Shown here: piece by piece, positions 11,307 to 48,774 of the stretch | Layout: each line of letters starts with the position of its first letter | Position numbering within the stretch: the stretch's first letter is position 1 | Notes under the pieces: model-generated | The model's database searches: none | Seen by the model: only the letters and a program-made list of their open reading frames with translations | Told to the model about the DNA's origin: nothing | Assembly: GCA_028718635.1 (NCBI GenBank) | Contig: JAQULK010000001.1 | Location: 479,755 to 543,754 of the forward strand | Reading direction: 5' to 3' | Source: Minisyncoccota bacterium | GTDB lineage: Bacteria; Patescibacteriota; Minisyncoccia; Phycocordibacterales; UBA9973 | Length of the DNA stretch: 64,000 nucleotides | Program-made: the position numbers and the translations under genes

Positions 11307-11313
11307 GAATCGT

Positions 11314-14312: not shown

Positions 14313-15592
14313 GATTTTAACAATAATTCTACTGCCTTATCCATTTGTGGATCTATTTTTGTATCTAAATCTTTTTGAGTTATTTCCACAGGGTAATCCG
14401 GCGTTAAACCCTTTTCAGAGATGGAAGTTCCATTAGGAGTCAGCCATTTTGCCACGGTAATTTTTAAAATCGTATCTGGAGTCACGTCGACGACTTCTTG
14501 TACTGATCCCTTGCCGAAACTTTGACTTCCTACTAATTTTGCCCTTTTGTTATCTTGCATAGCCCCAGCCAGAATTTCAGAAGCCGAAGCTGAACCGCCG
14601 TCTATCAAAATTACAAATTTCAATTTGTCATTAAAAATATTATAACCCTTGCTTCTAAAGATCTCCGCCTTTCTATTATTGCCGTAGTCTTCAGTCACGA
14701 CGGTTTTTCCGCTTGGCAAGAACCAGCTTGCCATATCCACAGCGGCATCCAAATATCCACCAGGATTTCCTCGCAAATCAAGCAAAAGTTTGTCTGAACC
14801 AGATTCTGAAAATTTCTTCATGGCATTGCGGAAAAGATTGGCGGAATTGGCAGAAAAACTATAAAGTTTTATTACGAAAATCCCATCGGTTCTTTTTTCC
14901 GTATCCAAGGTTGGTATGTTTATAGTATCTCGCACAATTTTTATTTCTTCCGGTTTGTCGCTTCCCTCTCTCAAAATTGTGAGCGTAACTGCCGTTCCTT
15001 TTGGCCCTCTTATTAATTTAATTGCTTCGTCAATACTTAAGCTAGAAGTCATAGTTGAGTCAATTTTAAGAATTTTATCGCCGGATTTTATATTTGCCTG
15101 ATAAGCGGGAGTATTTTTGAGCGGAGCGATAACCGTGAGTATTTTATCTTTTAATCCTACTTCAATGCCAATACCATCAAAATTACCGGCAATTTCTTCC
15201 TCAAAAGACTTTGTCTCGTCTGGATTAAAAAATACGCTGTATGGGTCGTTTAACGAGCTTACAAGCCCTCCAATAGCTCCGTAGACCTTGTCTTGGTCAG
15301 TAGTTTTACCTACAGACGGACTCTTTTCATTAATGATATTCCAAACTTTCCAAAATGGGGCAAAGTCTGTTTTTGTTATGACCTGGGTTTCTTTATTGGA
15401 AATACCTATGACCTTATCTATCTCCGGTCTGTTTGAGTCGCCGACATACACGCCTCCGATGAAAGTAATCATAAACAAAAAAACTATTAAAATAGTGAAA
15501 GCGACACGTCTTGTTTTTAAAAAATCAGCGAATTTTTGCATTATATTATATATTTTCTTCTTTTCTGAAATCGTTTTCTTTAAAATTGTCAA
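14309..15592 (-). CDS. ctpA: carboxyl-terminal processing protease (S41, with PDZ)
   Basis: [15 protein letters not shown] and [18 protein letters not shown]41 catalytic motifs; N-terminal TM anchor. Confidence 0.85.
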
Positions 15593-16610: not shown

Positions 16611-17603
16611 CTAGTTCTGAATTGAATAATCTAAACTTTGAGTGATTATCATATTGTGATGGCTTAAATAATAGTTTATAGAAAAAATTGCCCCGATAAT
16701 AGCCAGAACGATTAAGCCATTTGTTATTAAATCAATATGATGATTTTTCATTTTTAGAATAATATATAAAAGCAATGCAATAAAAATTATTCCAAAAATA
16801 ACGTAAAGAATTATATTGGTAGTGTTGCGAGGCGAAGCCAATAATTTTTGCCAGAAAGTAGGATTTTGAATTGGATTTGTTGTGGTATTTAGAATAGCGT
16901 TGTTAGGGGTATTTTCTACATTTTCTACGGTCTCTGTTCCGAGAACATTTGCTGGTTCTTTTGTGTTTGCAACCTTAGGTGTTGTTACTGTTATTTTTGT
17001 AGTTGTTTTTTGGGGCTGGTTTTGAGTTACTGTTTCTGGTAAAGGATTTGCATATACTTGTGCCACGAATATTGTTTCTCTGCCTTGATAAATGCCTTTT
17101 GCGATTCCTGTGCCTATCTCTGTGTAGTTCCCTTTTACGATATTTGCTCTGTGGGTAGGGCTCGCCATCCACGCATTCGTAACATCTCTGGAGTCGCTAA
17201 AATTAATAGCGAGGTTTTCACCCGCGTATTGGTATTTGTAACCGACTTGCATGAGCCAATACCAAGGGGTTTTTCCTTCAGGACTGGTGTGGGAGAAATA
17301 GCTTTTTGTCGCCATGTCATTTGCTTTCATTTCGGCTGCCTTGTTTAAAATCGGACTCACGGTTAAAGTCGGAAGATTTTGAGATTGTCGTTCAATATTT
17401 GTAAGATCATCCAAAACTGCGGGCAAGACAGTGGCCATGCCCCCTTTGGTGTTTAGATGCGTGAGTGTCGGGATTAAGAAAGTGAAGAGCTCAAATAAAA
17501 TAATAATCGCGACGATATTGCGAGTGCTCACATCCCGCAAGATATGCGGGCGATGATTATTTCCTTCGTGTGGAATAAAATGTTTTTTAAGCCAAGAAAA
17601 CAT
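16611..17603 (-). CDS. CAP/SCP (PR-1-like) domain protein with TM segments
   Basis: CAP-domain signature stretch ...YTEIGTGIA...VAQVYA; hydrophobic N-terminal and C-terminal helices. Confidence 0.55.
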   Translation of the reverse strand: MFSWLKKHFIPHEGNNHRPHILRDVSTRNIVAIIILFELFTFLIPTLTHLNTKGGMATVLPAVLDDLTNIERQSQNLPTLTVSPILNKAAEMKANDMATKSYFSHTSPEGKTPWYWLMQVGYKYQYAGENLAINFSDSRDVTNAWMASPTHRANIVKGNYTEIGTGIAKGIYQGRETIFVAQVYANPLPETVTQNQPQKTTTKITVTTPKVANTKEPANVLGTETVENVENTPNNAILNTTTNPIQNPTFWQKLLASPRNTTNIILYVIFGIIFIALLLYIILKMKNHHIDLITNGLIVLAIIGAIFSINYYLSHHNMIITQSLDYSIQN

Positions 17604-17623
17604 TTGTATATTATATATAACAA

Positions 17624-17651
17624 AACCCTATCTGTAAAGATAGGGTTTTGT
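17624..17651. terminator. bidirectional rho-independent terminator (aaaaccctatctgtaaagatagggtttt)
   Basis: 10-bp stem, 6-nt loop, flanked by A/T runs, between CAP-domain gene and PBP2 gene. Confidence 0.5.
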
Positions 17652-17669
17652 TTGTTAGATTTAAAATGT

Positions 17670-19400
17670 TTATTTAAAATATTCTGGGGTATTTACAGAC
17701 ATCCAGTTTAGAAGCTGGCCCATAATAGATGCAGCGGCGCCACTGCCTGTTGAAGATGGCCCATTCTCCATCATTATTGCAAAAGCGTATTTGGGATTGT
17801 CGTAAGGGAAAAAGCCGATGACCCAGGAGTTCACTTTATTTTTTGCGAGGCCGACTTGCGCGGTACCGGTTTTTGCAGCGACTTGGGTAAAATTAACGTT
17901 GAGTGATTTTGCAGTTCCAGATGTAACAGCAAGCCTCATTCCTTGGTGGATGGTGTCAAAATAATTTTTGTTTAAATTTAGCAAAGTTTTTTGATTTTCC
18001 TTTTCTGTGTCTCCGAGAATTAAATGCGGAGTCAGCATTGTCCCCCCGTTTCCTATAGCGGCTACGGCGCGAACCATTTCCATCGGAGTCACTTGGAAAC
18101 CATATTGTCCGATGGCGGTGTGATAAGTGTCTCCAATGCGCCAAGGGTCATTTTTGAAATTCAAAGCTTTCCATTGCGGACTCGGGATTGTCCCCTTTTT
18201 TTCATCTGGCAAGTCGATTCCAGACCTGTCTCCAAAGCCAAAAAGCTTGGCATATTTTTCAATATTTGCTATTCCAAGCCCTTTTTGATCTTGAAATCCT
18301 CCCCCAATTTCATAAAAATATACATCCGAAGATACTGCCAAGGCTTCCATCATATTAGTCCAGCCGTTTACTTGCCAGTCCTTAAAAACAGTCTTTTGGT
18401 CAGGAAAATAAGGATTTGGAATAGAAATAGAACCCGTAGAAAGAATTTTTTTATATGGATCAATCACTCCTTCAGTCAGAGCTCCTAAGGCAAAAAATGG
18501 CTTCACGATAGACCCAGGGGTATAGAGTCCTGAGATATTTTTATCCAGAAAAACTTTCCTTTTATCCGTTAAGTAACTATTTATCGTCTGTACATCTTTT
18601 CCAAGAGATAAAATCTCAGAATTATACTCAGGAAAACTGGTAGTGGTTAGGATCTCTCCGTTTGTAGCATCCATTATCACCCCTGATCCGCCTGAAAAGG
18701 TTCTATTAGCTGAAAGATTTTTAATAAGATTAAATAGTTCTCCTTGAATTCGAGCGTCGATCGTAGTTACTAAATCTTTTCCTTGTTTGGGAGTATTTAC
18801 AATATTTTCTGAATAAATTTTACCGAAAGCATCAGTTTCCACTATTGTTGCTCCATTTTCGCCCTCAAGAGTATCGTTGTATTCTTTTTCCAATCCATCT
18901 TTTCCTATAAATTTACTTTGCCAAAAATTCCCAGTGTTGTCTTGCGAAGGATAGCTCACATATCCTAAAAGATGCGAAAATCCAGGAGATAAATATGCGC
19001 GAGCAGGAGGATTTGCGATTTTGTTTTCTTCAAGAGGTGGATTGATTCCAAGATCTCCTTTTTCGTTCCAGGCCAACTCCTTTTTATTTCGATCATAAAT
19101 TATCCCCCTGTCGGCAAAAATAAGAGTCTTTTCAAACATATTGTTTTGACTTCGGTTAAAATACGACTCACCTTTTTGTATTTGCAGATAGACTAGGCGA
19201 GCTCCAAAAATCCCAGAAAAAAATAAAAACAAAATACCCAGCACTAAAATAGTTTTTTTGGAGATCGGGCGCTCTATTCGCCCCTCAAATTGCTGGCGAT
19301 CAAAATTCTGCAAATTTTTTGAGTCTAGGAAAATTTCATCTGGCTCTACGAAGGAATTTTTATTTTTTAATTTATTTTTTTTAATTATTCTGGTGATCAT
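17670..19400 (-). CDS. penicillin-binding protein 2 / class B transpeptidase
   Basis: N-terminal TM, dimerisation domain, transpeptidase SIVKP (SxxK), SSD, KTGTA motifs. Confidence 0.85.
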   Translation of the reverse strand: MITRIIKKNKLKNKNSFVEPDEIFLDSKNLQNFDRQQFEGRIERPISKKTILVLGILFLFFSGIFGARLVYLQIQKGESYFNRSQNNMFEKTLIFADRGIIYDRNKKELAWNEKGDLGINPPLEENKIANPPARAYLSPGFSHLLGYVSYPSQDNTGNFWQSKFIGKDGLEKEYNDTLEGENGATIVETDAFGKIYSENIVNTPKQGKDLVTTIDARIQGELFNLIKNLSANRTFSGGSGVIMDATNGEILTTTSFPEYNSEILSLGKDVQTINSYLTDKRKVFLDKNISGLYTPGSIVKPFFALGALTEGVIDPYKKILSTGSISIPNPYFPDQKTVFKDWQVNGWTNMMEALAVSSDVYFYEIGGGFQDQKGLGIANIEKYAKLFGFGDRSGIDLPDEKKGTIPSPQWKALNFKNDPWRIGDTYHTAIGQYGFQVTPMEMVRAVAAIGNGGTMLTPHLILGDTEKENQKTLLNLNKNYFDTIHQGMRLAVTSGTAKSLNVNFTQVAAKTGTAQVGLAKNKVNSWVIGFFPYDNPKYAFAIMMENGPSSTGSGAAASIMGQLLNWMSVNTPEYFK

Positions 19401-19745: not shown

Positions 19746-21473
19746 TTAATACACTTCCTGCTGATAACATTTTTCACAATACACTATTTCAGGCCGATCT
19801 GGGGCATAACTGGTTTCAAATTCAACTTCACATTTACCAGTATGGATATGATCTTCCTTATCACACATACATTGTCTATGCCAGAGCTTAAATGGGTTTC
19901 TTTGAGCGATACGTTGATAATGTCTGCAATTTGGACAAAGTTTCGGGATAGGTAAATTCATTCTTTTGTAAAAAGAAAATTCCTCGGCTATAACCTTAAA
20001 GGCTTCAGTGCATTGATCATTGCATTTCCCTTTGTGCTCGCATTCTATAACCTTACCGATTATTTCTTCTTTTGTGTCGGCAAAATTATCCGGAAGATCT
20101 TTGTTGTTGATTTCGATTTTATAGTTTCTTTCTTCGGTGTCTTTCCATTTGTAACCTTGTTTTAAAGCTTCTTCTTTAGTTAAAGGAAAGTATTCTTGAG
20201 CAATGGTTTCGTTGTAGCAGAAAGGACTTAATTCTGTTGGAAAGAACTCTCCGTATTTGTATATTCTACCTTTACTATCTATGTAGGGCATAGTGTTCAT
20301 ATGCTCTATAATTTTAGGGACTAATTCTTCGTATTGTTCTTTGGTGTATTGTTTGTTTAGGATGCAGTAGGATTTGTTGCGGAGACCGACGCAGGCGAAA
20401 CAATTTGAACATACATAACAAAAATCACAATAAGAAAGTTCATCAGATTCACCGCAAGTATTTGAAAATTTTGTATTAGTATTTTTCCAAAATGATATGT
20501 ATTCATAAGTAAGCTCCATAAATTCACAATAATTTGTATCGTAAACATTGCGACCATCAATCATTCGCATACAATATTTTTCATCTTCACATTTTTTAAC
20601 GTCGAAACAATTGTGAACATTTTTTGATTGAACGATGTTGTTTCCAGTCACGTTTTTGCACTGTATTTCTATGGCAAATTTATGCGGAACATTTCCTTTG
20701 ATTTTTAGAAATTCTTTTTGAATGTTTCTTAGTCCTTCTCTTCCATTTTTAAGCAACTCATTTTTCTTTTCAAGATATTGTTCCTTAGAATATGCTTTAT
20801 TGAAAATGTGATATTTTTGACTGCGCAGTCCTGTACAACCAATACAATCTTGGCAATTTTTGCAGTCAAAACAATAAATAAGGTCAAAAGAATTGGAACA
20901 TTCTTGAGCAAATATAGAATTTGATAATTTTTCGCAATCTATGCATTGGTAACAAAATTGACATTCTCGCGCTAGATGAGTATCAACGCAATTTTTTGAT
21001 TCATAGGGAGACCCATACATACAGTCCTCAATAGCGATGGATCCGAAACAAAGATAAGAATTTTTAACATCGCCAACATAATTGCAATAATCACTATTGT
21101 GAACAAAGTTAGCATTTAAATTTATCCTAGGAACTTTCTCTTGTAATTCCTTGAATTGGATAAAAAAATTCTTAGAGAAATCGTATTGTCTTCCATAAAA
21201 TAAAGCATCCCAATTATCAGACCAATAATAGTCGCGTTCATAAACTTTAAAGGGTTTATCTAAAGAATAAACAGAAATAATATTTTTACCGCTTCCGTCG
21301 CAAGTCCTTTTGTAAAGGGTTCTCTCGTTTCGAAAAACAAAACGACGCTGTAAACGGCAATCTGGGCAAAAAGTCGGAGGAGGTACTTTTATTTTTTGGT
21401 AAAATTTAAAATCCTCCGATTCTATCGTAAAATCTTTTTTACAATTTTGACAGATTTTTGTTTCACTTTGCAT
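19746..21473 (-). CDS. cysteine-rich zinc-ribbon-flanked protein, paralog 1 of 3 (function unknown)
   Basis: 575 aa, ~50 Cys. N-terminal CQNCKKDF...FCPDCRLQRRFVFRNER and C-terminal LCPNCRHYQRIAQRNP...CEKCYQQEVY ribbons. Internal repeats C-x2-C-x2-C-x2-C-x2-C...YCILNKQYTKEQYE. Paralogs at 27689-29458 and 39851-41617. Confidence 0.6.
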   Translation of the reverse strand: MQSETKICQNCKKDFTIESEDFKFYQKIKVPPPTFCPDCRLQRRFVFRNERTLYKRTCDGSGKNIISVYSLDKPFKVYERDYYWSDNWDALFYGRQYDFSKNFFIQFKELQEKVPRINLNANFVHNSDYCNYVGDVKNSYLCFGSIAIEDCMYGSPYESKNCVDTHLARECQFCYQCIDCEKLSNSIFAQECSNSFDLIYCFDCKNCQDCIGCTGLRSQKYHIFNKAYSKEQYLEKKNELLKNGREGLRNIQKEFLKIKGNVPHKFAIEIQCKNVTGNNIVQSKNVHNCFDVKKCEDEKYCMRMIDGRNVYDTNYCEFMELTYEYISFWKNTNTKFSNTCGESDELSYCDFCYVCSNCFACVGLRNKSYCILNKQYTKEQYEELVPKIIEHMNTMPYIDSKGRIYKYGEFFPTELSPFCYNETIAQEYFPLTKEEALKQGYKWKDTEERNYKIEINNKDLPDNFADTKEEIIGKVIECEHKGKCNDQCTEAFKVIAEEFSFYKRMNLPIPKLCPNCRHYQRIAQRNPFKLWHRQCMCDKEDHIHTGKCEVEFETSYAPDRPEIVYCEKCYQQEVY

Positions 21474-25351: not shown

Positions 25352-25375
25352 GAAATTATCTTATCACATTTTTCA

Positions 25376-25488
25376 AAATTACGAAATATAACTTTTCGAA
25401 GGGGTTTCGAGGCTGACGAGCCGAGAACTTCAGGAATTTTTAAGCTTCAAAAATTCCGTACCGAAGAAAAGTTTATATTTCGTAATTT
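25376..25488. repeat. ~112-bp palindromic repeat, copy 3 (orientation B, subtype ggctgacgagcc)
   Basis: Reverse-complement orientation of copy 1; between purE start and purH stop. Confidence 0.75.
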
Positions 25489-25502
25489 ATTAGAACTAAT
25501 TT

Positions 25503-27688: not shown

Positions 27689-29458
27689 TTAATAAACTTC
27701 TTGTTGGTAACACTTTTCGCAGTAAACTATTTCCGGTCTGCCAGGCGCATAGGAAGTTTCGAATTCATTTGGACAAGAATCATTTCCGTGAAAATGCTTC
27801 GCAGAATTTTGGTAAATATTATTTTCTGAAGCCCTACCCTTGCACATACATTTTCGATGCCAGAGTTTCAGCGGATTCCTTAAATTAATGCGTTGATAAT
27901 GTCGACAATTCGGACACAATCTAGGCAAAGGCAAATTCATTCTTTTATAAAATTTAAATTCTTCTGGAACTATTTTGAACGCCTCTGTGCATTGCTCTTT
28001 GCATTTACCGCCATGTTCGCAAGCAATAACTTTTCCCACTATATCATCTTTTACCTCATTAATATCGTCTGGAATATTTTTATTTTCTATGTCAACTTTG
28101 TAATTTCTTTCTTCCGTATCCTGCCAAGAATATCCTTTATCTAGAGCTTCTTCCTTTACTAGTGGAAAATACTCTTGCGCGATTGTTTCATTATAAGCAA
28201 AGGGAGATAATTCTGAAGGAAAAAATTCTCCGTATTTGTAAATAATTCCCTTTTTATCTTTATAAGGCATTTTCTCCATATGCTCTATAATTTTTGGCAG
28301 GAGTTTTTCATATTCTTCCTTTGTGTATTGTTTGTTTAAAATGCAATATTGTTTTTTGCGCAAACCCTCGCATCCGAAAATATTTAAACAATTATGACAT
28401 TCCTCACTGTAATAAGTATTTTGATTGCTTAAATTTCTAATACTAAAGGCTGTATTTGATCCGGCAAAACCGTGGGCAACTTCATATATAAGTTCTGCTT
28501 TAAAACCTTGAAAAGAAGTGTCATAACTATCTTTTGTTCCCCGTCTGCAAAAAAATAAATATTTTGAATCCTCTGCTTGGCCGGAAGTGAAAGACATGTG
28601 GACATTTCTAGCTTCCTTTAAATCATCCCCGTCTGAATTAACTGATTTATAAATCCGAGCATATCTATGGGGAAGTTTTGATTCTAACTCCTTTAGCTTT
28701 TGAATATTTTCCAAATGTTTTTTATAACTCCCAATATTTTCTTTTATAAATTTCTCATAATTTTCTTTTGAATATGGTTCATTGAATACGTGACATTGTT
28801 TATTTATGAGCCCGATACAGCCAAAACAATACATACAGTTTCTGCAGTCTATTAAATAATAACTTTCAATGCATTCTTGCGAGTAACGGCTAAAAAATAC
28901 TTTATTCAAACGCGTTGATTCAAAAATCTCATAACTAAATTCTATTTTTGATGAAAAAGCGACGTCCAAGGAATCCTGTGATTCCACCACTTGATTGCCA
29001 AAATATACTCTTTCATTATCTTTTCCTCCGAATAATAAATAGCATTCTTTGAAATCCAAACCGTAATTGCAATAATCGCTCAAAACAAAATTATCCCTGT
29101 AAAGATTTACTCTCGGAACAGATTTTTGAAGTGAATGAAATTGATCAAAAAAAGGAATCGAAAAATCATAATCACGGCCAAAAGTTATCGGATCCCATTT
29201 ATCAGAAAGCCAGCAATCACGACAATAAATTGTATAAGGTCTATCCTTGTGGTATATAGTCAATAATGATTTTTTACATAAAGCGCATTCACGCTTGTAA
29301 AAAACACGATTGTTTCTAAAAAGCAGTCTTCTTTGAAACCTGCAATCAGGGCAAAAAGTTGGCGCCAGCACTTTCATCTTCTCATAAAAATTGAAATCTT
29401 CTTTTTCTACAACAAACTTATTATTGCAATTTTGGCAAATTTTTGTTTCTGATTTCAT
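27689..29458 (-). CDS. cysteine-rich zinc-ribbon-flanked protein, paralog 2 of 3
   Basis: 589 aa; same terminal ribbons (ICQNCNNKF...FCPDCRFQRRLLFRNNR; ...LCPNCRHYQRINLRNP...CEKCYQQEVY) and internal Cys clusters; start overlaps fic stop by 4 bp. Confidence 0.6.
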   Translation of the reverse strand: MKSETKICQNCNNKFVVEKEDFNFYEKMKVLAPTFCPDCRFQRRLLFRNNRVFYKRECALCKKSLLTIYHKDRPYTIYCRDCWLSDKWDPITFGRDYDFSIPFFDQFHSLQKSVPRVNLYRDNFVLSDYCNYGLDFKECYLLFGGKDNERVYFGNQVVESQDSLDVAFSSKIEFSYEIFESTRLNKVFFSRYSQECIESYYLIDCRNCMYCFGCIGLINKQCHVFNEPYSKENYEKFIKENIGSYKKHLENIQKLKELESKLPHRYARIYKSVNSDGDDLKEARNVHMSFTSGQAEDSKYLFFCRRGTKDSYDTSFQGFKAELIYEVAHGFAGSNTAFSIRNLSNQNTYYSEECHNCLNIFGCEGLRKKQYCILNKQYTKEEYEKLLPKIIEHMEKMPYKDKKGIIYKYGEFFPSELSPFAYNETIAQEYFPLVKEEALDKGYSWQDTEERNYKVDIENKNIPDDINEVKDDIVGKVIACEHGGKCKEQCTEAFKIVPEEFKFYKRMNLPLPRLCPNCRHYQRINLRNPLKLWHRKCMCKGRASENNIYQNSAKHFHGNDSCPNEFETSYAPGRPEIVYCEKCYQQEVY

Positions 29459-35416: not shown

Positions 35417-36736
35417 TTAAATTTTTTCTGTTTTTAAAGCAGATTGGCCGATGTCTTTGCGGTATTGCATGCCCCTAAATGAAATTTTTTCGATGGCTTT
35501 ATAAGCTTTTGCAAGGGCTTCTTCAAGAGAATTGCCTATAGCTGAAACTCCAAGCACTCGCCCGCCACTCGTAACAAGTTTGCCATTTTCCATTTTAGAG
35601 CCCGCATGAAAGACGACGATGTCGGGTTGCATTTCCGCTTCATCAATACCGGTGATTATTTTCCCCTTTTCATAATTTTCCGGATATCCGCCGGAAGCGA
35701 GCGCAATATTACAAGCGGACACATTTTTCCATTTTATTTCTTGTTCATTTAATTTTTTATCAACACAGGCATTCAAAATTGCTAATAAGTCCGTGTCGAG
35801 CAGTCTCATGTAAACTTGGCATTCTGGATCACCAAAACGGGTATTGAATTCAATAATTTTAGGACCGTCCTTAGTCAGCATTAGGCTCGGATATAAAATT
35901 CCTTCAAAAGGAACTCCATCATCCATCATGCCTTTCAGTGTGGGAGCTATCACTTCCTTTTCTATCCTTTCCATCATCTCCCCGCTCACAAACGGAAGCG
36001 GTCCTATTACCCCCATTCCGCCAGTATTGGGTCCTTTGTCCCCTTCAAAAATTCTTTTGTGATCCTGCGAGCTTGGGAAGATCTTATAATTACTGCCGTC
36101 TGATAAAGCATGAATTGAAATTTCATGGCCGATTAAAAATTCTTCTATCACTACTTCATTGCCGGAATCCCCGAATATTTTCTTTACCATGATTTCCTCA
36201 AGTGCAGTATTTGCCTCTTCAATATTTTGAGCGATGATTACACCCTTACCGAAAGCTAGACCGTCTGCCTTGATAACGATCGGAAATGACTGCCTGCTAA
36301 TGTAATCTTTTGCTTCTTCAAATTTATTGAATATTTTAAATTTGGCTGTCGGTAGATTATGCTTATACATGAAATCTTTTGAAAAAGTTTTAGACCATTC
36401 CAAATGCGCCGCAGCCTTGGTCGGCCCCCAGATCCGCAAATTTGCCTTTCTAAATTCTTCCACTAGGTCAGTAGCCAATACCCCATCCGAAGCAGCGAGG
36501 GTTAAGTCAATATTTTCTTTTTTAGCGAACTCTATCAACTTTGGAATATCCACAGTCTTAATGTCTACATTTATTCCCAATTTCAAAGTACCGGCATTTC
36601 CAGGGGCAAAGAAAATCTGTCCGCACTGCGGTGATTGGGCGATCTTCCATCCCAAGGCATGTTCTCGTCCGCCACCTGCACCGATAATTAAAATTTTTTG
36701 CCTCGCCCCAAGGGCTACGGCCGAGGGTTTTTGCAT
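35417..36736 (-). CDS. purD: phosphoribosylamine--glycine ligase
   Basis: ILIIGAGGREHALGWK N-terminus, ATP-grasp. Confidence 0.9.
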   Translation of the reverse strand: MQKPSAVALGARQKILIIGAGGGREHALGWKIAQSPQCGQIFFAPGNAGTLKLGINVDIKTVDIPKLIEFAKKENIDLTLAASDGVLATDLVEEFRKANLRIWGPTKAAAHLEWSKTFSKDFMYKHNLPTAKFKIFNKFEEAKDYISRQSFPIVIKADGLAFGKGVIIAQNIEEANTALEEIMVKKIFGDSGNEVVIEEFLIGHEISIHALSDGSNYKIFPSSQDHKRIFEGDKGPNTGGMGVIGPLPFVSGEMMERIEKEVIAPTLKGMMDDGVPFEGILYPSLMLTKDGPKIIEFNTRFGDPECQVYMRLLDTDLLAILNACVDKKLNEQEIKWKNVSACNIALASGGYPENYEKGKIITGIDEAEMQPDIVVFHAGSKMENGKLVTSGGRVLGVSAIGNSLEEALAKAYKAIEKISFRGMQYRKDIGQSALKTEKI

Positions 36737-36744
36737 ATTATTTT

Positions 36745-36856
36745 GAATTATGAAACATAACTTTTCGAAGGGGTTTCGAGCGCGACGGCGCGAGAACTTC
36801 AGGATTTTTCAAGTTTCGAAAAATCCGTACCGAAGAAAAGTTTATGTTTTGTAATT
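36745..36856. repeat. ~112-bp palindromic repeat, copy 4 (orientation B)
   Basis: Between purD start and purN stop; cgcgacggcgcg core. Confidence 0.75.
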
Positions 36857-36861
36857 AATGA

Positions 36862-38872: not shown

Positions 38873-38883
38873 AATTTTGTTTT

Positions 38884-38992
38884 AGTTATTTTACATCAAC
38901 TTTTTCCGGTACGGATTTTTTGAAGCTTAAAAAATCCTGAAGTTCTCGCGCCGTCGCGCTCGAAACCCCTCCAAAAGTTATGTAAAATAACT
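38884..38992. repeat. ~110-bp palindromic repeat, copy 5 (orientation A, degenerate ends agttattttacat...atgtaaaataact)
   Basis: Conserved core ccggtacggattttttgaagcttaaaaaatcctgaagttctcgcgccgtcgcgctcgaaacccct; 3' end encodes last 3 codons + stop of purQ. Confidence 0.7.
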
Positions 38993-39778
38993 AACTGCAT
39001 TTTTAAAAATTTGTAATCCTGCCCCTTCCCTCGGCCATAGCCCTACGGGCGAGGCCTTGGAAACCTTTTTATTAAATTGCCACATTGGATTTTGGTGCGC
39101 AAACATTGCCCTCTCCGGATGTGGCATCATGCCTAGTACTCTGCCATTATATGCTAAAACTCCCGCAATGTCATGTTCCGATCCATTTGGGTTTTTTTCT
39201 AGGTTTTGAAACTCGCAAATTTCTCCATTTGCATATACAAAAGCAATTTCCCCACTTTTTTTCATTTTTAGGTATTCTTTTTGAGAGATTTTATAACGTC
39301 CTTCACCATGAGCTATCGGTAATGATATCTTTCTGATATTTTTTAACCAAGGACTACTTGCCCCGCCATGGCGTGGGGTTCCTTTAGCCTCTAGGTCCAC
39401 CCACCTATCCAAATATTTTCCATTTTTATTATAGGTGAGCGCGCCGGGTAAGATTCCTAAATTTGTCATTATCTGAAACCCATTACAAATGCCTATAGCA
39501 AGAGTATTGCCTGATAAAAATTCTATTAACTCCTTCGCTAAATGATTTTTAAATTTATTTGCGTAAGCTTTCCCGCTTCCTGTGTCGTCTCCATAAGAGA
39601 ATCCCCCAGGGAAAACCAAAATTTGATAACCAGAGAGCATTTTCGGCTTTTTTATCAGATCATTAATATGCACAATATCCACGGCTCCGCCCACTCTCTC
39701 AAAAGCGAATTTTGTTTCTTCTTCGCAATTCAATCCGTATCCAGACATTATTATTATTTTTGGTTTTTTGTTTTTCAT
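38978..39778 (-). CDS. purQ: FGAM synthase I, glutamine amidotransferase subunit
   Basis: KIIIMSGYGLNCEEET..., catalytic GICNGFQ, HGEGR. Confidence 0.9.
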   Translation of the reverse strand: MKNKKPKIIIMSGYGLNCEEETKFAFERVGGAVDIVHINDLIKKPKMLSGYQILVFPGGFSYGDDTGSGKAYANKFKNHLAKELIEFLSGNTLAIGICNGFQIMTNLGILPGALTYNKNGKYLDRWVDLEAKGTPRHGGASSPWLKNIRKISLPIAHGEGRYKISQKEYLKMKKSGEIAFVYANGEICEFQNLEKNPNGSEHDIAGVLAYNGRVLGMMPHPERAMFAHQNPMWQFNKKVSKASPVGLWPREGAGLQIFKNAVSYFT

Positions 39779-39789
39779 GATTTTAAATT

Positions 39790-39850
39790 CTCCTCACCCC
39801 TTTCTTTCCCCTCTCCATTATTGATGTAATGGAGAGGGGCTGGGGAGAGG
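39790..39850. repeat. palindromic GGAGAGGGG-family element, copy b
   Basis: cccctctccattattgatgtaatggagagggg + ctggggagagg; between purQ start and paralog-3 stop. Confidence 0.5.
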
Positions 39851-41617
39851 TCAATATACTTCACTTTGATAGCATCGTTCACAATAAACTATCTCTTTCT
39901 TTGCTGAAATATGTCCGGTCTTAAATTCTTCTTTGCATGGTTCGTCTCCATGAAAGTGTTTTATGGTATTTTTGTATATATTAGTTTTATCACTTGAACC
40001 AGCACACATACAAGATCTTTTTTCTAATTTTAATTTCAACCTATCTTCTATTCTTCTTTCAAATCTACATTCATGACACAAGGTCGGAAGCGGAAGATTT
40101 TCTTTTTTATAAAACAAAAACTCATTTTCTAGAATTTTATATGGATTTTTACATTTTTCACATTCTATAACTTCTTTTAGGATTTCATCATCAATTTCAG
40201 TTATTGATTCTGTAAGTTCTGATGCTTTTTTTGTTATTTTATATTCTCCCCTAGGTACATCTATCCATAAATACCCTTTATTTTTTGCCTCAGCCTCAGT
40301 AAGTGGAAAATGTTGTATAGCGACAGTATTATTGTAGCCAAGTGGAGAAAGTTCTATAGGAAAAAATTCTCCGTATTTATATACAAGACCTTGTGAATCC
40401 ACATAGGGCATATCTTCCATGTGTTTTTTTATTTGAGGAATAAGTTTTTCATATTCTTCTTTAGAATATTGCTTATTTAAAATACAATATTGTTTCTTTT
40501 TTAACCCAACACAACCAAAACAATCAGACGAACTAAAAAGATGATGACAGTATTCATTATTTCTTGATGAAGGCCAACAACTACGTGAAAATTTATTATT
40601 ATAGGAATTTTCACCACATTCTAAAGTTTCATAATTTAATTCAGTATGCTCTCCCCAGTTGCAAGAATCATAGTTATCCTTATTTCCTGGTACTTGCATA
40701 TACTGACAATAACGCATATTTTCACTTTCTCTTATTAAATAGCTATCATTTACATTTTTACAATTCGTCACATGAGAACCACTTGAATTTAAATTTTTAA
40801 GACCGTGTTGATATTTTGTCGGCTGAGTTAGCCAAAATAAACGTGCTTTTTTTCTTGCCTCTAAAATTCCAGAAGTAGAATTCAAATTCATTTTCTTTAT
40901 TTCTTTTTCATATTCTTCTTTTGTATATTTTTTATTAAAAATACAATAAGATAATTTACGCAAATTTGCACAACCAAAACAATCATTACATCCTAAGCAA
41001 TTACGACAAAAATAAAGATTATATGATTCTGCGCACATTATAGAAAAATAGCACTGATAACAATTTTCCAACCAAAAACATTCATAACAACGTTCGCAAT
41101 TTTTAATATGAGAATTATCAACACAATTCTTGCAGGAATCTACGCCATTTCCATACATACAATCCTCAGAATAATTTGAATTCACAATCAAATAACTGTT
41201 TTTTATATAAGACGCATTAAAAACATACGGACTATTATTAATAAAAGTATTATTAAAATTATATACAGGTACAACCTTACTTAATTCTTCTATTTGTTGA
41301 AAAAATGGCTTAGTAAAGTCAATATCTAAAGCATGCTCCATTGGATCCCAATTATCTCCAAACCATTCTTCTCGAGTCATTATTTTTCTTCCACTTTCTG
41401 CAGGGTAAGTAGAGAACATATTTTCACCCGTTAAAAAATTTTTTACTTTGAATAATTTTCTTTCATTTCTCCAAGCTAACCGTCTTTGTGCGCGACACAT
41501 AGGACAAAAAGTTGGAGGTGGAACCTTCATTTTTTCATAGAAATTAAAATCCTCCGGTTCTATTGGGAAATTTTCCTTGCAGTTTTGACATATTCTATTT
41601 TCTGTAATATACGCCAT
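39851..41617 (-). CDS. cysteine-rich zinc-ribbon-flanked protein, paralog 3 of 3
   Basis: 588 aa; RICQNCKENF...FCPMCRAQRRLAWRNER N-ribbon; LCHECRFERRIEDR...CERCYQSEVY C-ribbon; C-x2-C clusters and YCILNKQYSKEEYEKL repeat. Confidence 0.6.
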   Translation of the reverse strand: MAYITENRICQNCKENFPIEPEDFNFYEKMKVPPPTFCPMCRAQRRLAWRNERKLFKVKNFLTGENMFSTYPAESGRKIMTREEWFGDNWDPMEHALDIDFTKPFFQQIEELSKVVPVYNFNNTFINNSPYVFNASYIKNSYLIVNSNYSEDCMYGNGVDSCKNCVDNSHIKNCERCYECFWLENCYQCYFSIMCAESYNLYFCRNCLGCNDCFGCANLRKLSYCIFNKKYTKEEYEKEIKKMNLNSTSGILEARKKARLFWLTQPTKYQHGLKNLNSSGSHVTNCKNVNDSYLIRESENMRYCQYMQVPGNKDNYDSCNWGEHTELNYETLECGENSYNNKFSRSCWPSSRNNEYCHHLFSSSDCFGCVGLKKKQYCILNKQYSKEEYEKLIPQIKKHMEDMPYVDSQGLVYKYGEFFPIELSPLGYNNTVAIQHFPLTEAEAKNKGYLWIDVPRGEYKITKKASELTESITEIDDEILKEVIECEKCKNPYKILENEFLFYKKENLPLPTLCHECRFERRIEDRLKLKLEKRSCMCAGSSDKTNIYKNTIKHFHGDEPCKEEFKTGHISAKKEIVYCERCYQSEVY

Positions 41618-41628: not shown

Positions 41629-44600
41629 TTATTTCATTTTATTTGAAAAATTATGATAAGCATCATATAACTTTCTCACACTCGTTTCCACTACCTTATT
41701 CCCGACACGGCGGGCAAGTTTTCCATCTGCAATAATAAATTTATTATCTTTAGTCGTTTTACCCAGTTTAGTGCAAGGGATATCCTTCATCATTTTTTCA
41801 AAAGCGGAGACATTTCTCGGCGACACAGAAACTAAAATTCTCCCATGGCTCTCTGAAAATAACTTTATATCTGTGGGTAAAAAGGAAGCCTTGCTTCCTT
41901 CTTGAGGATTACTTAGAGAAATATCGCATCCAATCATTCCTCCCACGCAGGATTTGGCGAGCGCTATTCCTAGCCCGCCAGAATTTACAGGCATAGCCGA
42001 GGCTATTAATTCTTTTTGAATTGCTTTTTCCAAAGCGCAATAAATTTTTATATTTTTCTTTAAATCTACGTTAGGCACGTTTCCTAAATTCCCCTCTTGA
42101 GGGGTGCCTTTGGCGGGGTGGATCATTTTTAAATATTCTCCCCCACCAAGTTCATCTTTCGTTTCTCCAAGTAAATAAATTATATCGCCAACATTTTTGA
42201 ATTCTGGAGAAACAGTTTTATTCAAATCAGGCATAATGCTGATGGCTGAAATAAGAAGAGTCGGCGGAATGGAAACGGCCACAGGATTCCCTTTCTCATC
42301 GTAACCTTTGAAATCATTAAACATACTATCTTTGCCGGATATGAACGGCGTACCATAGCCCACAGCATAGTCATAACAAGCCTTAACGGAGGCCACGAGC
42401 TGAGCCAAGCGTTTTGGATCGTTGGAAGAACACCAACAGAAATTATCTAGAATTGCCATATGTGAAAGCGTTCCTCCTGCTGAAATAGCATTTCTAATAG
42501 CAGTATCTATAGCGCAGGAAGCCATATGGTAAGTACTAATGTCTCCATATGAAGGATATGTACTTGAAGATAAGACGACACCTTTATTTGAATTTAAAAC
42601 TGGCCGAAAAACTTGCGCCTCAGTATTTATGCGACCTCTTCCAGAAAGCGGTTTTAAAACAGAAGATCCTTGGACTTCGTGGTCATACTGCTCTGAAATA
42701 AAAGAAAATCCGCTAATATTTTTATTAACTAGTAAATTTTCTAGGACTTTGGTATATGTTTCCCCCCTCTCCTTATTAAGGAGAGGGGCTGGGGGTGAGG
42801 TGAATTTAATCGGTTCTGTATGCAAATGCTGTTTCGGTAAGCCATCATGCAAGAAATCCATAGGGATATCCATAATCTTTCTTGTCCGTCCTTTGGCGGA
42901 TTGCTTCCAATTAACAATACATTTTCCGGAATTTGTGAATTCACCTATCACTGTCGCTTCTACTCCCCGACTTTCCATCAATTTTTCAAATATTTTCCAA
43001 TTTTTCTTTGGCACAGATAAAGTCATACGTTCTTGTGATTCTGAGATCCAGATTTCCCATGGGCGAAGACTCGGATATTTCAAAGGAACTTTTTCGAGAG
43101 TAACTTTCGCCCCGCCGCACTCTTTTGCCATTTCAGCCACCGAACAAGAAATTCCTCCAGCGCCATTATCCGTGATGCTATTATATAAATTCATATCTCG
43201 CGCTTCTTTTATTATTGCATCACTTAATTTTTTCTGAGTTATTGGGTCACCGATCTGCACCGCAGTTGCCGGAGAACTGGAATCCATCACAACCGAAGAA
43301 AAAGTCGCTCCGTGAATGCCATCGAGCCCTACTTTTCCGCCGATCATCACAATATAATCTCCTGCCTGTGCCTTTTTAATATGAGAAGGTCGGGTTTTTG
43401 TTCCTGACTTAGGTAGGTTCCTTGGGATTAATCCCACTGTCCCAGCAAAAACTAAAGGCTTGCCTCTATATCTGTCGTCATAATGTACGAAACCGTTTAA
43501 AGTCGGTATACCGGAACAATTTCCTCCTACATTTATTCCTTTTACTACTCCTTCCATGATGCGTTTAGGTGACAACATTTTATTTTTCAAATCTTTATCA
43601 CGGAAAAGAGGTCTTTTATCCTCAGGATTGCCAAAACAAAAACCATAAATATTTGCTACGGGCTTTGCGCCTAGACCAAAGCCAATCGTGTCTCGATTTA
43701 CTCCCACGATACCCGTGATAGCTCCGCCAAATGGATCTAAGGCTGAAGGACTGTTGTGGGTTTCTACTTTATGCGTTATCAAATAATCTTTATCAAAAAT
43801 TATTCCACCAGAATTATCAGAAAACACAGAAACGCAAAAATCATTTTTACCTTTTTGTTTACGAATTATGCTTGTTGCGCCTTTTATGTAAGTTTTATAC
43901 AAACCATCCTTAATATCATCGATCGGATTTGCAAAAATAGTGTGTTTGCAATGCTCAGACCATGTTTGTGCGAGAGATTCCAATTCGATATCCGTCGGAT
44001 CTCGTTTAAGTTTTCTGAAATGTGCTTGAATTACTTTCATTGAGGCCAGATCGAGAGCCAAAGGACCTCGTCTTGCGCCTGTTCCGTCCAATATTCCTTC
44101 TTTGCCGATTTTTATAAGTTCTTCGTCGGGCACTTTTAAAGAAACATTAATTACCGGAGTAGTCTTTTTTAAAACAACCTTAGGCACCTCTAAGGGCAAA
44201 CCTTTCTTTTTTAGGTCAACAAAACTTATTATGTGTGAACGTTCGATCAGTGGATTGTGAAGTGACAAAGCAATTTTTTCTACCTCTTTCAACTTAGAAT
44301 TTGAAACTAAATAAATTTTAGAAGTATAGACAGCGAGATCATTTTTATTTTTTAGATGCAACAAGTCTAAAATAGTTTCCTCTACAGTATGCCCGACGTT
44401 ATCTGTGACTCCGGGCTTGAAACCTATTTCAATGGCATAGGTAAACTTATGTGTTGTTGGCTTCACCCGTAGGTCTATAGCCGAGGGAAATTTGTTTATT
44501 GAAAATTCTTCGAGGATGGGATTAGTGAGAGCTTGGGCTATCTTGAGAATTTTATCTCTTGAGTCACTTGCTAATTTGTGTGAAATTAAATAAGAGCTTA

Positions 44601-44646
44601 TAAAGCCAATCTTTTCTTTTGGCGTCACATATATTCGGGAAATCAT
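41629..44646 (-). CDS. purL: FGAM synthase II (PurL), likely with fused N-terminal PurS-like segment; carries in-frame palindromic insert
   Basis: PurM-like N/C repeat domains (GAAHDVSDGG-like motifs), 1005 aa; residues ...FTSPPAPLLNKERGETY... are encoded by palindromic element 42760-42802. Confidence 0.85.
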   Translation of the reverse strand: MISRIYVTPKEKIGFISSYLISHKLASDSRDKILKIAQALTNPILEEFSINKFPSAIDLRVKPTTHKFTYAIEIGFKPGVTDNVGHTVEETILDLLHLKNKNDLAVYTSKIYLVSNSKLKEVEKIALSLHNPLIERSHIISFVDLKKKGLPLEVPKVVLKKTTPVINVSLKVPDEELIKIGKEGILDGTGARRGPLALDLASMKVIQAHFRKLKRDPTDIELESLAQTWSEHCKHTIFANPIDDIKDGLYKTYIKGATSIIRKQKGKNDFCVSVFSDNSGGIIFDKDYLITHKVETHNSPSALDPFGGAITGIVGVNRDTIGFGLGAKPVANIYGFCFGNPEDKRPLFRDKDLKNKMLSPKRIMEGVVKGINVGGNCSGIPTLNGFVHYDDRYRGKPLVFAGTVGLIPRNLPKSGTKTRPSHIKKAQAGDYIVMIGGKVGLDGIHGATFSSVVMDSSSPATAVQIGDPITQKKLSDAIIKEARDMNLYNSITDNGAGGISCSVAEMAKECGGAKVTLEKVPLKYPSLRPWEIWISESQERMTLSVPKKNWKIFEKLMESRGVEATVIGEFTNSGKCIVNWKQSAKGRTRKIMDIPMDFLHDGLPKQHLHTEPIKFTSPPAPLLNKERGETYTKVLENLLVNKNISGFSFISEQYDHEVQGSSVLKPLSGRGRINTEAQVFRPVLNSNKGVVLSSSTYPSYGDISTYHMASCAIDTAIRNAISAGGTLSHMAILDNFCWCSSNDPKRLAQLVASVKACYDYAVGYGTPFISGKDSMFNDFKGYDEKGNPVAVSIPPTLLISAISIMPDLNKTVSPEFKNVGDIIYLLGETKDELGGGEYLKMIHPAKGTPQEGNLGNVPNVDLKKNIKIYCALEKAIQKELIASAMPVNSGGLGIALAKSCVGGMIGCDISLSNPQEGSKASFLPTDIKLFSESHGRILVSVSPRNVSAFEKMMKDIPCTKLGKTTKDNKFIIADGKLARRVGNKVVETSVRKLYDAYHNFSNKMK
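42760..42802. repeat. palindromic GGAGAGGGG-family element, copy c, inside purL reading frame
   Basis: cccccctctccttattaaggagaggggctgggggtgagg; perfect 12-bp stem; ORF stays open through it. Confidence 0.55.
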
Positions 44647-47618: not shown

Positions 47619-48774
47619 GCGCAGGTTCTGTGTCTGTTTGAATTATATTAAATCGCAAAACCCCGATGGTCTGGCCTTGCTTCGTCTTTACATTTACTCG
47701 CCATTTACCCTCGGCTAAATTGTAGCGCATAGAATACGTGCGGAAACCGCCATCTCGCCCGCCTACTACAGGTAAATTTATCGTACTTCCAGTTACCCAT
47801 TTCTTCTGTATTTCATCATAATATTGCCATTCGTGAACAATAGTAAGGTTTAGATTTTTAGGAGAAAAAATAGCACTAAAAGCATAGATGGGTTCCCCGG
47901 AAACCTGATTGAAATTTTGATATAAATTGAAATAACCTCTCCAACCATAATCCTCAAAAGTCACATCATAATTCCCTTCTGAATTTTTTTGTATCGAATG
48001 ATACACTCCGGCATCTTTTAAGGATAAAGGAATCGGGGGAATCAGATTCGTAAAATACAAAAAATTGATTAGAATAGAAATTCCTAAAATTAGGAATAAT
48101 AAATCACGAAACATAAACTTTTCTTCGGTACGGATTTTTTGAAGCTTAAAAAATCCTGAAGTTCTCGGCTCGTCAGCCTCGAAACCCCTTCGAAAAGTTA
48201 TGTTTCGTGATTTAAGGTTAATAAAATAAAATAAAATTAAAAGGAATACGGTAATAAAAAGTAAACTAAGAAATCCGGAAAGTAAAAATACCCAAGCACC
48301 TATTCTATGTAAAATCACCGGCACGATAAAAATGGCAAAGGAATAGATCGAAAGAAAAAATAAGCTTATTTGGAAACTAAGGCGAATATAATGACGTTTA
48401 AGTGATTCATTCGCTATAAAAGCAAGAGCAAGAAGGACAATAAAAGGCCAAGTTACAAATATATCTGCGCTTCTGAAATAAAACACCAAGTAGGTAGACA
48501 AAATTCCTCCAAAGAAAAATTGCAGTATGTTCACATACCAAAAATGCGCTTTTTGAGGATTTTTCTCAGCCCCTCTTTCGTTTTCTTGGAGGTGAATAAG
48601 GGTGATAAAGATGCCCACAATGAGCAAATGTCCTAAAACCCATAAATTCTCCCATAATGTGTCTACCCTATGAAGCGTGAGCGCATCAAAAACGAAACCT
48701 CCAACTAGGGATAAAGATGAGATAGGTCGTTCAAATCTTCCATAGAAATTGCGAATTGGATCTAGAAAAAACAT
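47599..48774 (-). CDS. polytopic membrane protein with C-terminal extracytoplasmic domain; carries in-frame copy of 112-bp repeat
   Basis: 5-6 TM helices N-terminally, then residues NLKSRNITFRRGFEADEPRTSGFFKLQKIRTEEKFMFRDLLF encoded by repeat copy 6, then a further TM and soluble domain. Confidence 0.5.
   Translation of the reverse strand: MFFLDPIRNFYGRFERPISSLSLVGGFVFDALTLHRVDTLWENLWVLGHLLIVGIFITLIHLQENERGAEKNPQKAHFWYVNILQFFFGGILSTYLVFYFRSADIFVTWPFIVLLALAFIANESLKRHYIRLSFQISLFFLSIYSFAIFIVPVILHRIGAWVFLLSGFLSLLFITVFLLILFYFINLKSRNITFRRGFEADEPRTSGFFKLQKIRTEEKFMFRDLLFLILGISILINFLYFTNLIPPIPLSLKDAGVYHSIQKNSEGNYDVTFEDYGWRGYFNLYQNFNQVSGEPIYAFSAIFSPKNLNLTIVHEWQYYDEIQKKWVTGSTINLPVVGGRDGGFRTYSMRYNLAEGKWRVNVKTKQGQTIGVLRFNIIQTDTEPALTEGVK
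48101..48213. repeat. ~112-bp palindromic repeat, copy 6 (orientation A, subtype ggctcgtcagcc), inside CDS 47599-48774 in frame
   Basis: aaatcacgaaacataaacttttcttcggtacggattttttgaagcttaaaaaatcctgaagttctcggctcgtcagcctcgaaaccccttcgaaaagttatgtttcgtgattt. Confidence 0.75.

Follow-up and report, generated by a model that had tools for sequence, protein, structure and literature searches.

Three copies of a short palindromic repeat are present in the 64,000-nt stretch of Paceibacteria DNA (Candidate Phyla Radiation, CPR) analyzed here, which we refer to as the window. Two of them (copies 1 and 2) are intergenic and one (copy 3) is within purL, encoding an FGAM synthetase. Judged by sequence and architecture, the repeat, non-coding, GC-rich, and about 45-65 nt per unit, belongs to the BoxC/PIT/TM class. 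It is probably structure-forming passenger DNA that acts and spreads at the DNA level and does not regulate purL. The purL copy is read through in frame, in an inter-domain linker that the element has invaded repeatedly across related lineages. The repeat is not private to this Paceibacteria genome, as the preliminary description had implied in calling it the genome's second palindromic family; it is a known pan-bacterial class, found in many phyla, in a new host lineage and with new behavior. The copies, and the blocks of the one in purL, are as follows.

5393-5452, + strand: intergenic copy 1, CCTCTCCCC-AA-CCCCTCTCC-loop-GGAGAGGGG-AAAGCAA-GGGGTGAGG-AGAATTT
39785-39850, - strand: intergenic copy 2, with the architecture of copy 1 when read on this strand
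42762-42807, + strand (antisense to purL): purL copy, CCCCCCTCTCC / TTATTAA / GGAGAGGGG / CT / GGGGGTGAGG / TGAATTT
42764-42772, + strand: pyrimidine block Y of the purL copy, CCCCTCTCC
42780-42788, + strand: purine block R of the purL copy, GGAGAGGGG, the Watson-Crick partner of Y
42792-42800, + strand: mirror purine block RH of the purL copy, GGGGTGAGG, assigned by the triplet rule of PMC4666352 and by covariation

Sequence and architecture of the repeat

The core of the repeat, CCCCTCTCC-N(7-14)-GGAGAGGGG, matches the window exactly three times (5404-5429, 39808-39839, and 42764-42788); over 100 dinucleotide-preserving shuffles of the window the mean was 0.00 per shuffle. Beside each copy is the sequence GGGG(T/A)GAGG or its complement, at 5393-5401 (-), 5437-5445, 39792-39800 (-), 39842-39850, and 42792-42800. 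These results confirm the family of three palindromes with a GGGG(T/A)GAGG tail reported in the preliminary description, the coordinates of which were right within a few bases. Copies 1 and 2 carry an extra left outer arm, CCTC(T/A)CCCC, making them nested two-tier palindromes; their predicted single-strand fold is a hairpin in two tiers, with 8 bp in the outer stem and 11-14 bp in the inner one. The preliminary description did not mention this arm, the mirror symmetry of the tail, or the AAAGCAA spacer of copy 1 (see below). The stem is 11 bp in copy 1, 13-14 bp in copy 2, and 11 bp with a 3-nt loop in copy 3, with the extended stems of all three leaving loops of 3-6 nt. Folding with ViennaRNA, which covers the hairpin only, gave DNA z-scores of -3 to -5 for the window copies and RNA folds of -33.8 and -37.0 kcal/mol (z -5.5 and -5.9).

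Read in reverse order, the tail repeats the purine arm of the stem (GGAGAGGGG compared with GGGGWGAGG). Such mirror symmetry is what a purine-motif triple helix requires. TM_ECO, a class II purine-motif intrastrand triplex motif earlier named BoxC (1990s) and PIT (Hoyne & Maher 2000, 2002), has the published pattern CCCTCNCCC-N3-6-GGGNGAGGG-N3-GGGNGAGGG (Holder et al. 2015, PMC4666352). The copy in the E. coli yhjG/yhjE spacer, CCCCTCTCCCTTTCAGGGAGAGGGCTGGGGTGAGGG, is essentially the sequence in the window. The two share nearly the same blocks (CCCTCTCC / GGAGAGGG / GGGTGAGG), their size, and their order of pyrimidine block, loop, purine block, short loop, and mirror purine block. Like the published repeats, those described here are dispersed, have unrelated flanks and no strand bias, sometimes occur as inverted pairs, and go together with small deletions and rearrangements nearby. 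The preliminary reading of a dispersed palindromic repeat family is supported.

There are also differences. The host is a Patescibacteria with 35% GC instead of a proteobacterium or cyanobacterium. There are two motifs per hairpin, a lineage-specific terminus (A-CCTCWCCCC), and a second loop that is 7 nt on one side. Between stem and tail the purL copy has CT(G), and copies 1 and 2 have CT/TT on one strand, spacers that fit the published second loop of about 3 nt, with AAAGCAA/AAAGAAA on the other strand of copies 1 and 2; on the + strand of copy 1, AAAGCAA stands in place of CT. At 7 nt the latter spacers exceed the N3 of the published TM_ECO pattern; across phyla the spacer is 2-5 nt. While the E. 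coli copies were reported to be always intergenic, here most are translated in frame and one fuses two genes.

In the structure we propose, the blocks are CCCCTCTCC, its complement GGAGAGGGG, and, after 2-7 nt, the mirror block GGGGTGAGG or GGGGAGAGG. Given the mirror blocks, a single strand could form a hairpin with the third block lying in its major groove as a purine-motif triple helix. Paceibacteria units are often tailed on both sides, which would provide one triplex motif per strand around one common hairpin, though the two tails may pair instead as an outer stem. With GGGGTGAGG or GGGGAGAGG antiparallel to GGAGAGGGG, all three copies have nine of nine allowed triplets (G*G-C, A*A-T, T*A-T), and copies 1 and 2 have nine of nine on both strands. 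Stem and tail also covary in the fetched loci, pairing GGAGAAGGGG with GGGGTTGAGG or GGGGATGAGG, GGGAAGGGG with GGGGGTTAGG, AAGGAGGGGA with AGGGGAGGT, AGGGGAGGG with GGGTGGGGA, and GGGAGAAGG with GGATGAGGG, the last following a spacer hairpin of 11-14 nt. We evaluated 102 non-canonical hairpins with 23 different purine arms against 1000 arm permutations. The mean triplet score was 6.72 with the own arm versus 6.03 +/- 0.07 when permuted, and at least eight of nine triplets formed in 41% of hairpins versus 15%, a level reached by none of the 1000 permutations. As copies in one family are not independent, this test is supportive but short of conclusive. A G-quadruplex was considered and rejected: four G-tracts occur in high-GC versions, but two of the four positions in the window copies have just GG, and nuclear magnetic resonance (NMR) of the E. 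coli element favored the triplex over the quadruplex.

Distribution of the repeat in bacteria

We searched GTDB, with each species represented by one genome, for the exact 27-base pattern of core and tail; the counts of loci and phyla given here are lower bounds. It is present at at least 120 loci from at least 15 phyla, in genomes with a GC content of 0.34-0.73. The matches listed are from Planctomycetota, Chloroflexota, Cyanobacteriota, Bacteroidota, Ignavibacteriota, Pseudomonadota (alpha, beta, and gamma), Acidobacteriota, Gemmatimonadota, Armatimonadota, Bipolaricaulota, Myxococcota, Desulfobacterota, Verrucomicrobiota, Nitrospirota, Methylomirabilota, and Patescibacteria. Bacillota and Actinomycetota were not found among these listed matches (at least 120 genome loci, L004-L123), which may not be a real absence. 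A 37-nt query of the repeat matches 4396 of 5426 E. coli genomes, and full-length matches are present in 267 plasmid records. The motif is also in at least 120 IMG/VR contigs but in just four of 50,697 GenBank phage records; given this weak association, phage as the vector was discounted. In E. coli MG1655 there are 23 TM_ECO copies, all intergenic and without strand bias, with 3610 copies in 262 proteobacterial genomes, and cyanobacteria have many G/C-rich motifs; TM_ECO has also been associated with local genomic instability (PMC4666352).

The flanks of 313 unique units are unrelated and the boundaries sharp, with about 0 bits of information beyond -2/+1; the only flank signal is a pyrimidine at -2/-1 and G/T at +1. 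Relative to genes, by crude gene calls, units lie between co-directional genes on either strand (>M> 28, <M< 32), between convergent genes (>M<, 21), and between divergent genes (<M>, 6). The lack of an orientation bias suggests an element of the DNA level, and published work on E. coli and on archaea reports the same.

Searches for a known RNA returned nothing for the repeat. With the Rfam covariance models only two tRNAs reached the gathering score in the window, and eight motif-bearing loci had no relevant match at E<=1. Literature searches with the repeat sequence strings and with the peptide GEGLGVR likewise found nothing relevant. Other candidate identities were discarded. A CRISPR-like array does not fit the periodic copies in loci L248 and L012, which have no repeat-spacer pattern. 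These copies are whole units with their flanks in tandem, with periods of 72 nt (L248, 1732-2829) and 78 nt (L012, 60-251). An intrinsic (Rho-independent) terminator does not fit hairpins followed by AAAGCAAGGGG or CTGGGGG without a T-run. The tail GGGGGUGA could pair with UCACCUCC of the 16S rRNA, yet as a universal binder of the anti-Shine-Dalgarno it was rejected given that there is no orientation bias and most units have no downstream start codon; a crude survey of Shine-Dalgarno sequences in the window gave no information either way.

The copy in purL

41629-44646, - strand: purSL gene, intact, 1005 aa, with a PurS-like N-terminus and FGAM synthetase domains
42751-42837, - strand: coding for PurL residues 604-632, the inter-domain linker and site of the repeated invasions

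The purL gene lies with purQ, purF, and an RseP / M24-peptidase pair. A deposited protein, P0001, from a metagenome-assembled genome of Candidatus Pacebacteria (Paceibacterota, CPR) with a 672-kb contig, matches its product at 100% identity, and the closest relatives are from Paceibacteria and Nomurabacteria. NCBIfam gives a PurL match and a weak PurS-like N-terminal match. The open reading frame (ORF) is uninterrupted, with no frameshift or stop over its 1005 aa, and reads ...KFTSPPAPLLNKERGETYT... (PIKFTSPPAPLLNKERGETYT) across the element. An AlphaFold model built with 82 diverse sequences has a mean predicted local distance difference test (pLDDT) of 92.6 and a predicted template modeling score (pTM) of 0.94, and superposes on the FGAM synthetases of Salmonella (TM 0.80) and human, with TM 0.80-0.82 for the two. 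The intact ORF and the high-confidence fold point to a functional-looking PurS-PurL fusion instead of a pseudogene. GC-rich hairpins can disturb sequencing, but with an intact ORF, a confidently predicted PurL fold, and that very site occupied by the element in independent assemblies as well (L001, P0002), it is extremely improbable that we are looking at an assembly or sequencing artefact or at a purL pseudogene.

The copy encodes K614-E629 (KFTSPPAPLLNKERGE) on the - strand and is opposite in orientation, its T-type tail being on the antisense strand. The preliminary description had raised the question of whether the segment of about 14 residues is an insertion in a surface loop. In the model, the copy falls in a flexible linker: residues 602-630 form a coil flanked by helices 596-601 and 631-640, with a pLDDT of about 80 versus 96-97 in the flanks. 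The copy is in frame, as described, but it is not a clean insertion. Element-free orthologs have a 26-aa linker, PKHHLxTxPVIHKNxEPxLKxKKSYT, between invariant FLHxGLP and LExLLxxKNISG. In the window this linker is 29 aa, which indicates that the element replaced the middle of the old linker, largely overwriting it for a net gain of 3 aa. The change can be followed in the DNA of the element-free linker in L002 and that of the window:

L002: CCA TTT ATT TAC AAA AAT AAT GAA ATT AAA CCT GAA ACA AAA AAA TCT TTT ACT
Window: CCG ATT AAA TTC ACC TCA CCC CCA GCC CCT CTC CTT AAT AAG GAG AGG GGG GAA ACA TAT ACC

Compared with L002, 42-48 nt of element stand for about 33 nt of the old linker.

The same copy is found in L001, whose PurL is about 88% identical in amino acids, with differences confined to the loop. 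Because the gene is intact and its relatives with about 88% identical PurL have the same copy, the copy can be regarded as tolerated in frame, as originally proposed. Between L001 and the window, 14 of 14 same-residue element codons are identical versus 569 of 841 (67.7%) across the gene (p ~0.004), and the GC-rich codons of the element are kept in a gene with 39% GC and a GC content at third codon positions (GC3) of 0.33. In distant homologs the linker region is 43-72 aa without sequence conservation. The segment was not seen in the unrelated PurL of Thermus thermophilus, where the linker at this position is Pro-rich and about as long, yet of unrelated sequence.

The PurL linker as an insertion hotspot

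To determine how often the PurL linker carries the element, we surveyed 120 PurL orthologs (>=67% identity). By a conservative signature, 47 of them have element-type linkers, and about 10 more look element-like yet were missed by the signature. On a neighbor-joining tree built without the linker columns, the carriers are scattered among element-free sequences, and Fitch parsimony requires at least 28 state changes from an element-free root, a count that recombination between lineages and neighbor-joining error could inflate. Several independent events are still required by the differing positions and frames. Protein P0010 keeps the N-terminal half of the linker (...EP-TPPLVKGRGRGGV-YV, versus ...EP-APNTKLS-YV in its sister P0015) and P0013 keeps the C-terminal KKSYT, while the reading frame gives PLLxKERG in L003 and L124 versus LPLSLARRGARGEV in L133. 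The L124 linker has the full two-armed form with the AAAGCAA spacer, as in the intergenic copies of the window, and the linkers of P0076 and L137 have two hairpins each. In 1.25 Mb of related loci, four of the seven canonical hairpins are in the ~80-nt purL linker.

The site being an inter-domain linker, and P/G-rich versions of it occurring in many lineages, one could imagine that a flexible Pro/Gly/Arg-rich PurL linker was favored by selection on the protein and that the palindromic DNA is incidental. We consider this very improbable, and the different frames together with the intergenic copies already refute most of it: the nucleotide sequence of the repeat recurs in non-coding DNA of the same genome and is read in different frames in different lineages, its GC-rich codons are retained despite the low GC3 of the gene, and most PurL orthologs are element-free.

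In-frame copies in other genes

The preliminary description saw copies at gene junctions plus a single tolerated in-frame copy. In the lineage the pattern is reversed. Searching about 0.94 Mb of low-GC Paceibacteria DNA with the terminus 9-mer gave 18 clusters, about 13 of which we judged to be real elements; 11 of these are inside ORFs and only the two window copies are intergenic. Besides PurL, in-frame copies are found in PurQ (L126), in GuaA between the GATase and PP-loop domains (L137), and in Dus (L061). At the purN/purD junction of L127 (15930-15990) and L137 (17352-17408), the element took the last four codons of the first gene, the stop, the start, and the first codons of the second, leaving a single PurN-PurD ORF (Formyl_trans_N 53-182 and GARS_N 207-306). 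The genes purN and purD are separate in 14 loci (L001, L002, and 12 others). All the sites, in PurL, PurQ, GuaA, Dus, and PurN-PurD, are linkers or loops between Pfam domains. The coding insertions replace 27-36 nt of host sequence, and the copies of the relatives in PurQ, GuaA, Dus, and PurN-PurD all read T-S-P-(P/Q)...G-E-V, the other two frames hitting the TGA in GGG-TGA-GG or a TAA in the loop. The AAATT beside the element looked like part of its terminus, but it pre-exists in empty purN/purD alleles.

Beyond the CPR, the IMG/VR contig L208 has in-frame copies in a Mu-F-like protein (1895-1931) and in the terminase large subunit (4396-4432), the latter in the linker between the ATPase and nuclease domains. 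A Pseudanabaena plasmid (NZ_CP112877.1, L328) has one in an annotated DNA methyltransferase (2501-2537).

The window's own purN/purD junction, the one carrying the triplex-type element and the fusion in L127 and L137, is filled by a 126-nt repeat unlike the triplex element (36734-36859, 83% identical to 25365-25490). Next to it, at 36701-36727 (-), the N-terminus of purD has a GC-rich stretch (CCCTCGGCCGTAGCCCTTGGGGCGAGG, encoding KPSAVALGARQ) where relatives have M..KQK, and this may be a remnant of another palindromic insert. The PurD of L137 has a P/G-rich insert, SPLEEYPLGGGGLNLSTPSRKRATPQEGN, at residues ~545-575 of ORF 16814-18748 that is missing from L127 PurD and may be another GC-rich repeat translated in frame.

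Similar behavior is known from the Rickettsia palindromic elements (RPE), described in the account of Ogata et al. given in PMC10969869 as in frame in unrelated housekeeping genes of a reduced genome, at positions that suit the fold, and also between genes. The repeats described here, in frame in PurL, PurQ, GuaA, Dus, and PurN-PurD at fold-compatible sites, resemble that description. The likeness drawn here is one of behavior. RPEs are, by the same account, about 100-150 bp, Rickettsia-restricted, and without the triplex architecture, while the present units are 45-65 nt and pan-bacterial.

The intergenic copies

4259-5392, + strand: rseP, upstream of copy 1
5455-6189, + strand: downstream of copy 1, M24 peptidase, with ATG 5455 as its probable true start; the mechanical ORF start, 5419, falls within the element
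38978-39778, - strand: purQ, downstream of copy 2
39851-41617, - strand: 588-aa Cys-rich ORF (ORF588) between purL and purQ, upstream of copy 2

Copy 1 fills the gap from the rseP stop (5390-5392) to the peptidase ATG at 5455, and copy 2 lies between the ORF588 stop (39851-39853) and the purQ start (39778-39776). Relatives have empty versions of both sites. Their rseP/peptidase junction is TAG-AA-ATG or TAG-AAT-ATG (62 nt in the window), and their ORF588/purQ junction TAA-AAAAAA-ATG (72 nt in the window). These sites show the element to be polymorphic for presence and absence between relatives, and no target-site duplication is visible in the two filled-versus-empty comparisons.

Both copies end in GGGGTGAGG-AGAATTT, with an ATG 2-6 nt on (9-13 nt past the right arm). 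At these stop-to-start gaps the tail GGGGTGAGGAG would give a Shine-Dalgarno-like sequence, so perhaps only orientations supplying the Shine-Dalgarno-like GAGGAG could survive there, and initiation at the downstream gene may be tied through the outer stem to termination at the upstream one. These features raise the alternative of a device working in the RNA, in which the Shine-Dalgarno-like GGGGUGAGGAG is masked in the outer stem and freed when a ribosome terminating at the neighboring stop codon melts that stem (translational coupling), or the hairpin stabilizes the transcript, and in which the purL copy slows ribosomes at a domain boundary. The RNA folds are very stable, as given above. The left outer arms of the intergenic copies start at the base next to the stop codon, their right arms are followed by AGAATTT and ATG, the two copies have a common orientation relative to their genes, and the synonymous sites of the purL copy are conserved. 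Against this, there is no orientation bias relative to transcription across genomes, the purL copy is oppositely oriented with its T-type tail antisense, and relatives do without the element with gaps of 2-6 nt. The crude survey did not establish the use of Shine-Dalgarno sequences in the genome, and the E. coli elements had no promoter or terminator activity in published tests (PMC4666352). An RNA-level device is an unlikely explanation of the family, though such a role may hold as a secondary, co-opted function of copies 1 and 2 only.

Several further observations follow. The longest M24 peptidase ORF starts at ATG 5419 inside the repeat (MERGKQGVRRIF...), and its orthologs start at the equivalent of ATG 5455 (MQKTKLIHEVRA...); gene-calling programs will probably set this start wrongly. 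In L001, the 88%-identical relative, the ORF588/purQ gap is filled independently by another hairpin-plus-GGTGAG element, a different 49-nt insert at 14773-14821 consisting of the hairpin ATGACCC...GGGTCAT and then GGTGAGT. A 117-nt direct-repeat family (66-100% identity), presumably the “112-bp family” of the preliminary description, is at 8282-8398, 11309-11425, 38877-38993, and 48096-48212, with one copy at the purF/purQ junction. Similar 76-nt segments occur as pairs (20325-20400 and 20769-20844; 28304-28379 and 28751-28826; 40445-40520 and 40904-40979) in three regions ~8-12 kb apart and mark internally duplicated paralogous ORFs including the 588-aa Cys-rich one. At 1678-1719 is an unrelated perfect 16-bp GC-rich palindrome, ACCCCCACACCTATTT...AAATAGGTGTGGGGGT, which is not homopurine/homopyrimidine.

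Comparison with transposable repeats

A repeat that is short, palindromic, dispersed, and polymorphic between close relatives, is frequent in an inverted two-armed form, and possibly has a taste for A/T-rich AAATT-like flanks could be an ordinary non-autonomous transposon. It would then be either a REP/REPIN moved by a RAYT or a miniature inverted-repeat transposable element (MITE) moved by an insertion sequence (IS) transposase encoded elsewhere. Like REPs, BIMEs, and REPINs, the repeat is a short GC-rich extragenic palindrome, often in inverted doublets, at gene 3' ends and inside operons. The foot of the REP hairpin on its 5' side is said, in work attributed to Nunvar et al. 2010 and Bertels & Rainey 2011, to carry a conserved GTAG/GTGG. 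REPs are lineage-specific in sequence. The present repeat is not, its 27-base core occurring in at least 15 phyla; no GTAG/GTGG head is found in the flanks of the 313 unique units, it has no known RAYT, and it has a mirror third block that REPs lack. From a MITE the repeat differs as well, having no terminal inverted repeats beyond the motif and no target-site duplication in the two empty-site comparisons, and its coding insertions replace short stretches of 27-36 nt instead of being clean additions. The authors of the E. coli study also found no link to transposons (PMC4666352). Taken together, an ordinary transposon seems a rather poor candidate, to which we give little credence.

Recurrent repeats with potential quadruplex-forming sequences (PQS) and triplexes are also known from methanogenic archaea, where they are intergenic, enriched between convergent genes, and oriented independently of genes (PMC8044849). 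As in the present repeat, a G-rich block stands beside a partly complementary C-rich block, and a hairpin, triplex, or G-quadruplex is possible. Unlike the present repeat, they have the C-rich block on the 3' side of the G blocks, they occur in archaea, and the copies reported are all intergenic (PMC8044849).

Discussion

The evidence above is most consistent with a BoxC/PIT/TM repeat that is carried as passenger DNA. In a gene-dense genome such a repeat would survive only where it is harmless. Two copies would have done so by filling stop-to-start gaps, where a Shine-Dalgarno or coupling role is conceivable. The third would have taken the middle of an unconstrained 26-aa PurSL linker, to be translated as KFTSPPAPLLNKERG and presumably with neutral effect on PurL. 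Our best guess for the mode of spread is replication- or repair-associated copying, by template switching or patch repair, set off by the folded G-rich strand, which would explain short replacements without target duplications.

A number of points weigh against the repeat being a neutral, triplex-forming passenger. The fully conserved synonymous sites of the purL copy could mean selection and not neutrality. Both intergenic copies face the same way relative to the genes and start right after a stop codon, which fits an RNA-level role. Two L137 copies with CCCTCCCCT hairpins retain GGGGWGAGG tails that do not mirror the stem, and Watson-Crick pairing of the outer arms may outweigh the triplex in the Paceibacteria lineage. 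A triplex is known for the E. coli sequence alone, single-stranded in vitro, where it was seen by circular dichroism (CD) and NMR; it was undetected in vivo, dimethyl sulfate (DMS) footprinting being negative (PMC4666352). No mobilizing enzyme or copying mechanism was identified, the search for RAYT/IS200-like genes having covered the window.

More tentatively, and with somewhat less than even confidence, we suggest that BoxC-type motifs are active, pan-bacterial, tiny non-autonomous mobile DNA. They would replace a few dozen bases without target duplication, and the CPR copies, like RPEs, would donate Pro/Gly/Arg-rich linkers and could weld genes together, as in PurN-PurD.

BoxC/PIT/TM repeats have been known for ~30 years and were described as strictly intergenic, with their function, origin, and spread never established. 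What is new is that the motif reaches the Patescibacteria and that it is routinely translated in frame there, where domains meet. One practical consequence is for annotation, as start codons can be called inside the element (the peptidase start at 5419) and database peptides of the 'PLLxKERGxGEV' type are translated repeats. The repeated overwriting of a 26-residue linker in an essential purine enzyme provides dated, site-specific insertions together with their empty alleles, which could reveal target choice and insertion chemistry. The repeat also shows a route by which structure-forming DNA gives rise, in minimal genomes, to new linkers in proteins and to fused genes. If BoxC-type motifs are indeed an active mobile class, the PurSL linker, with dozens of apparently independent events, would lend itself naturally to working out how a class of repeats unexplained since the 1990s inserts.

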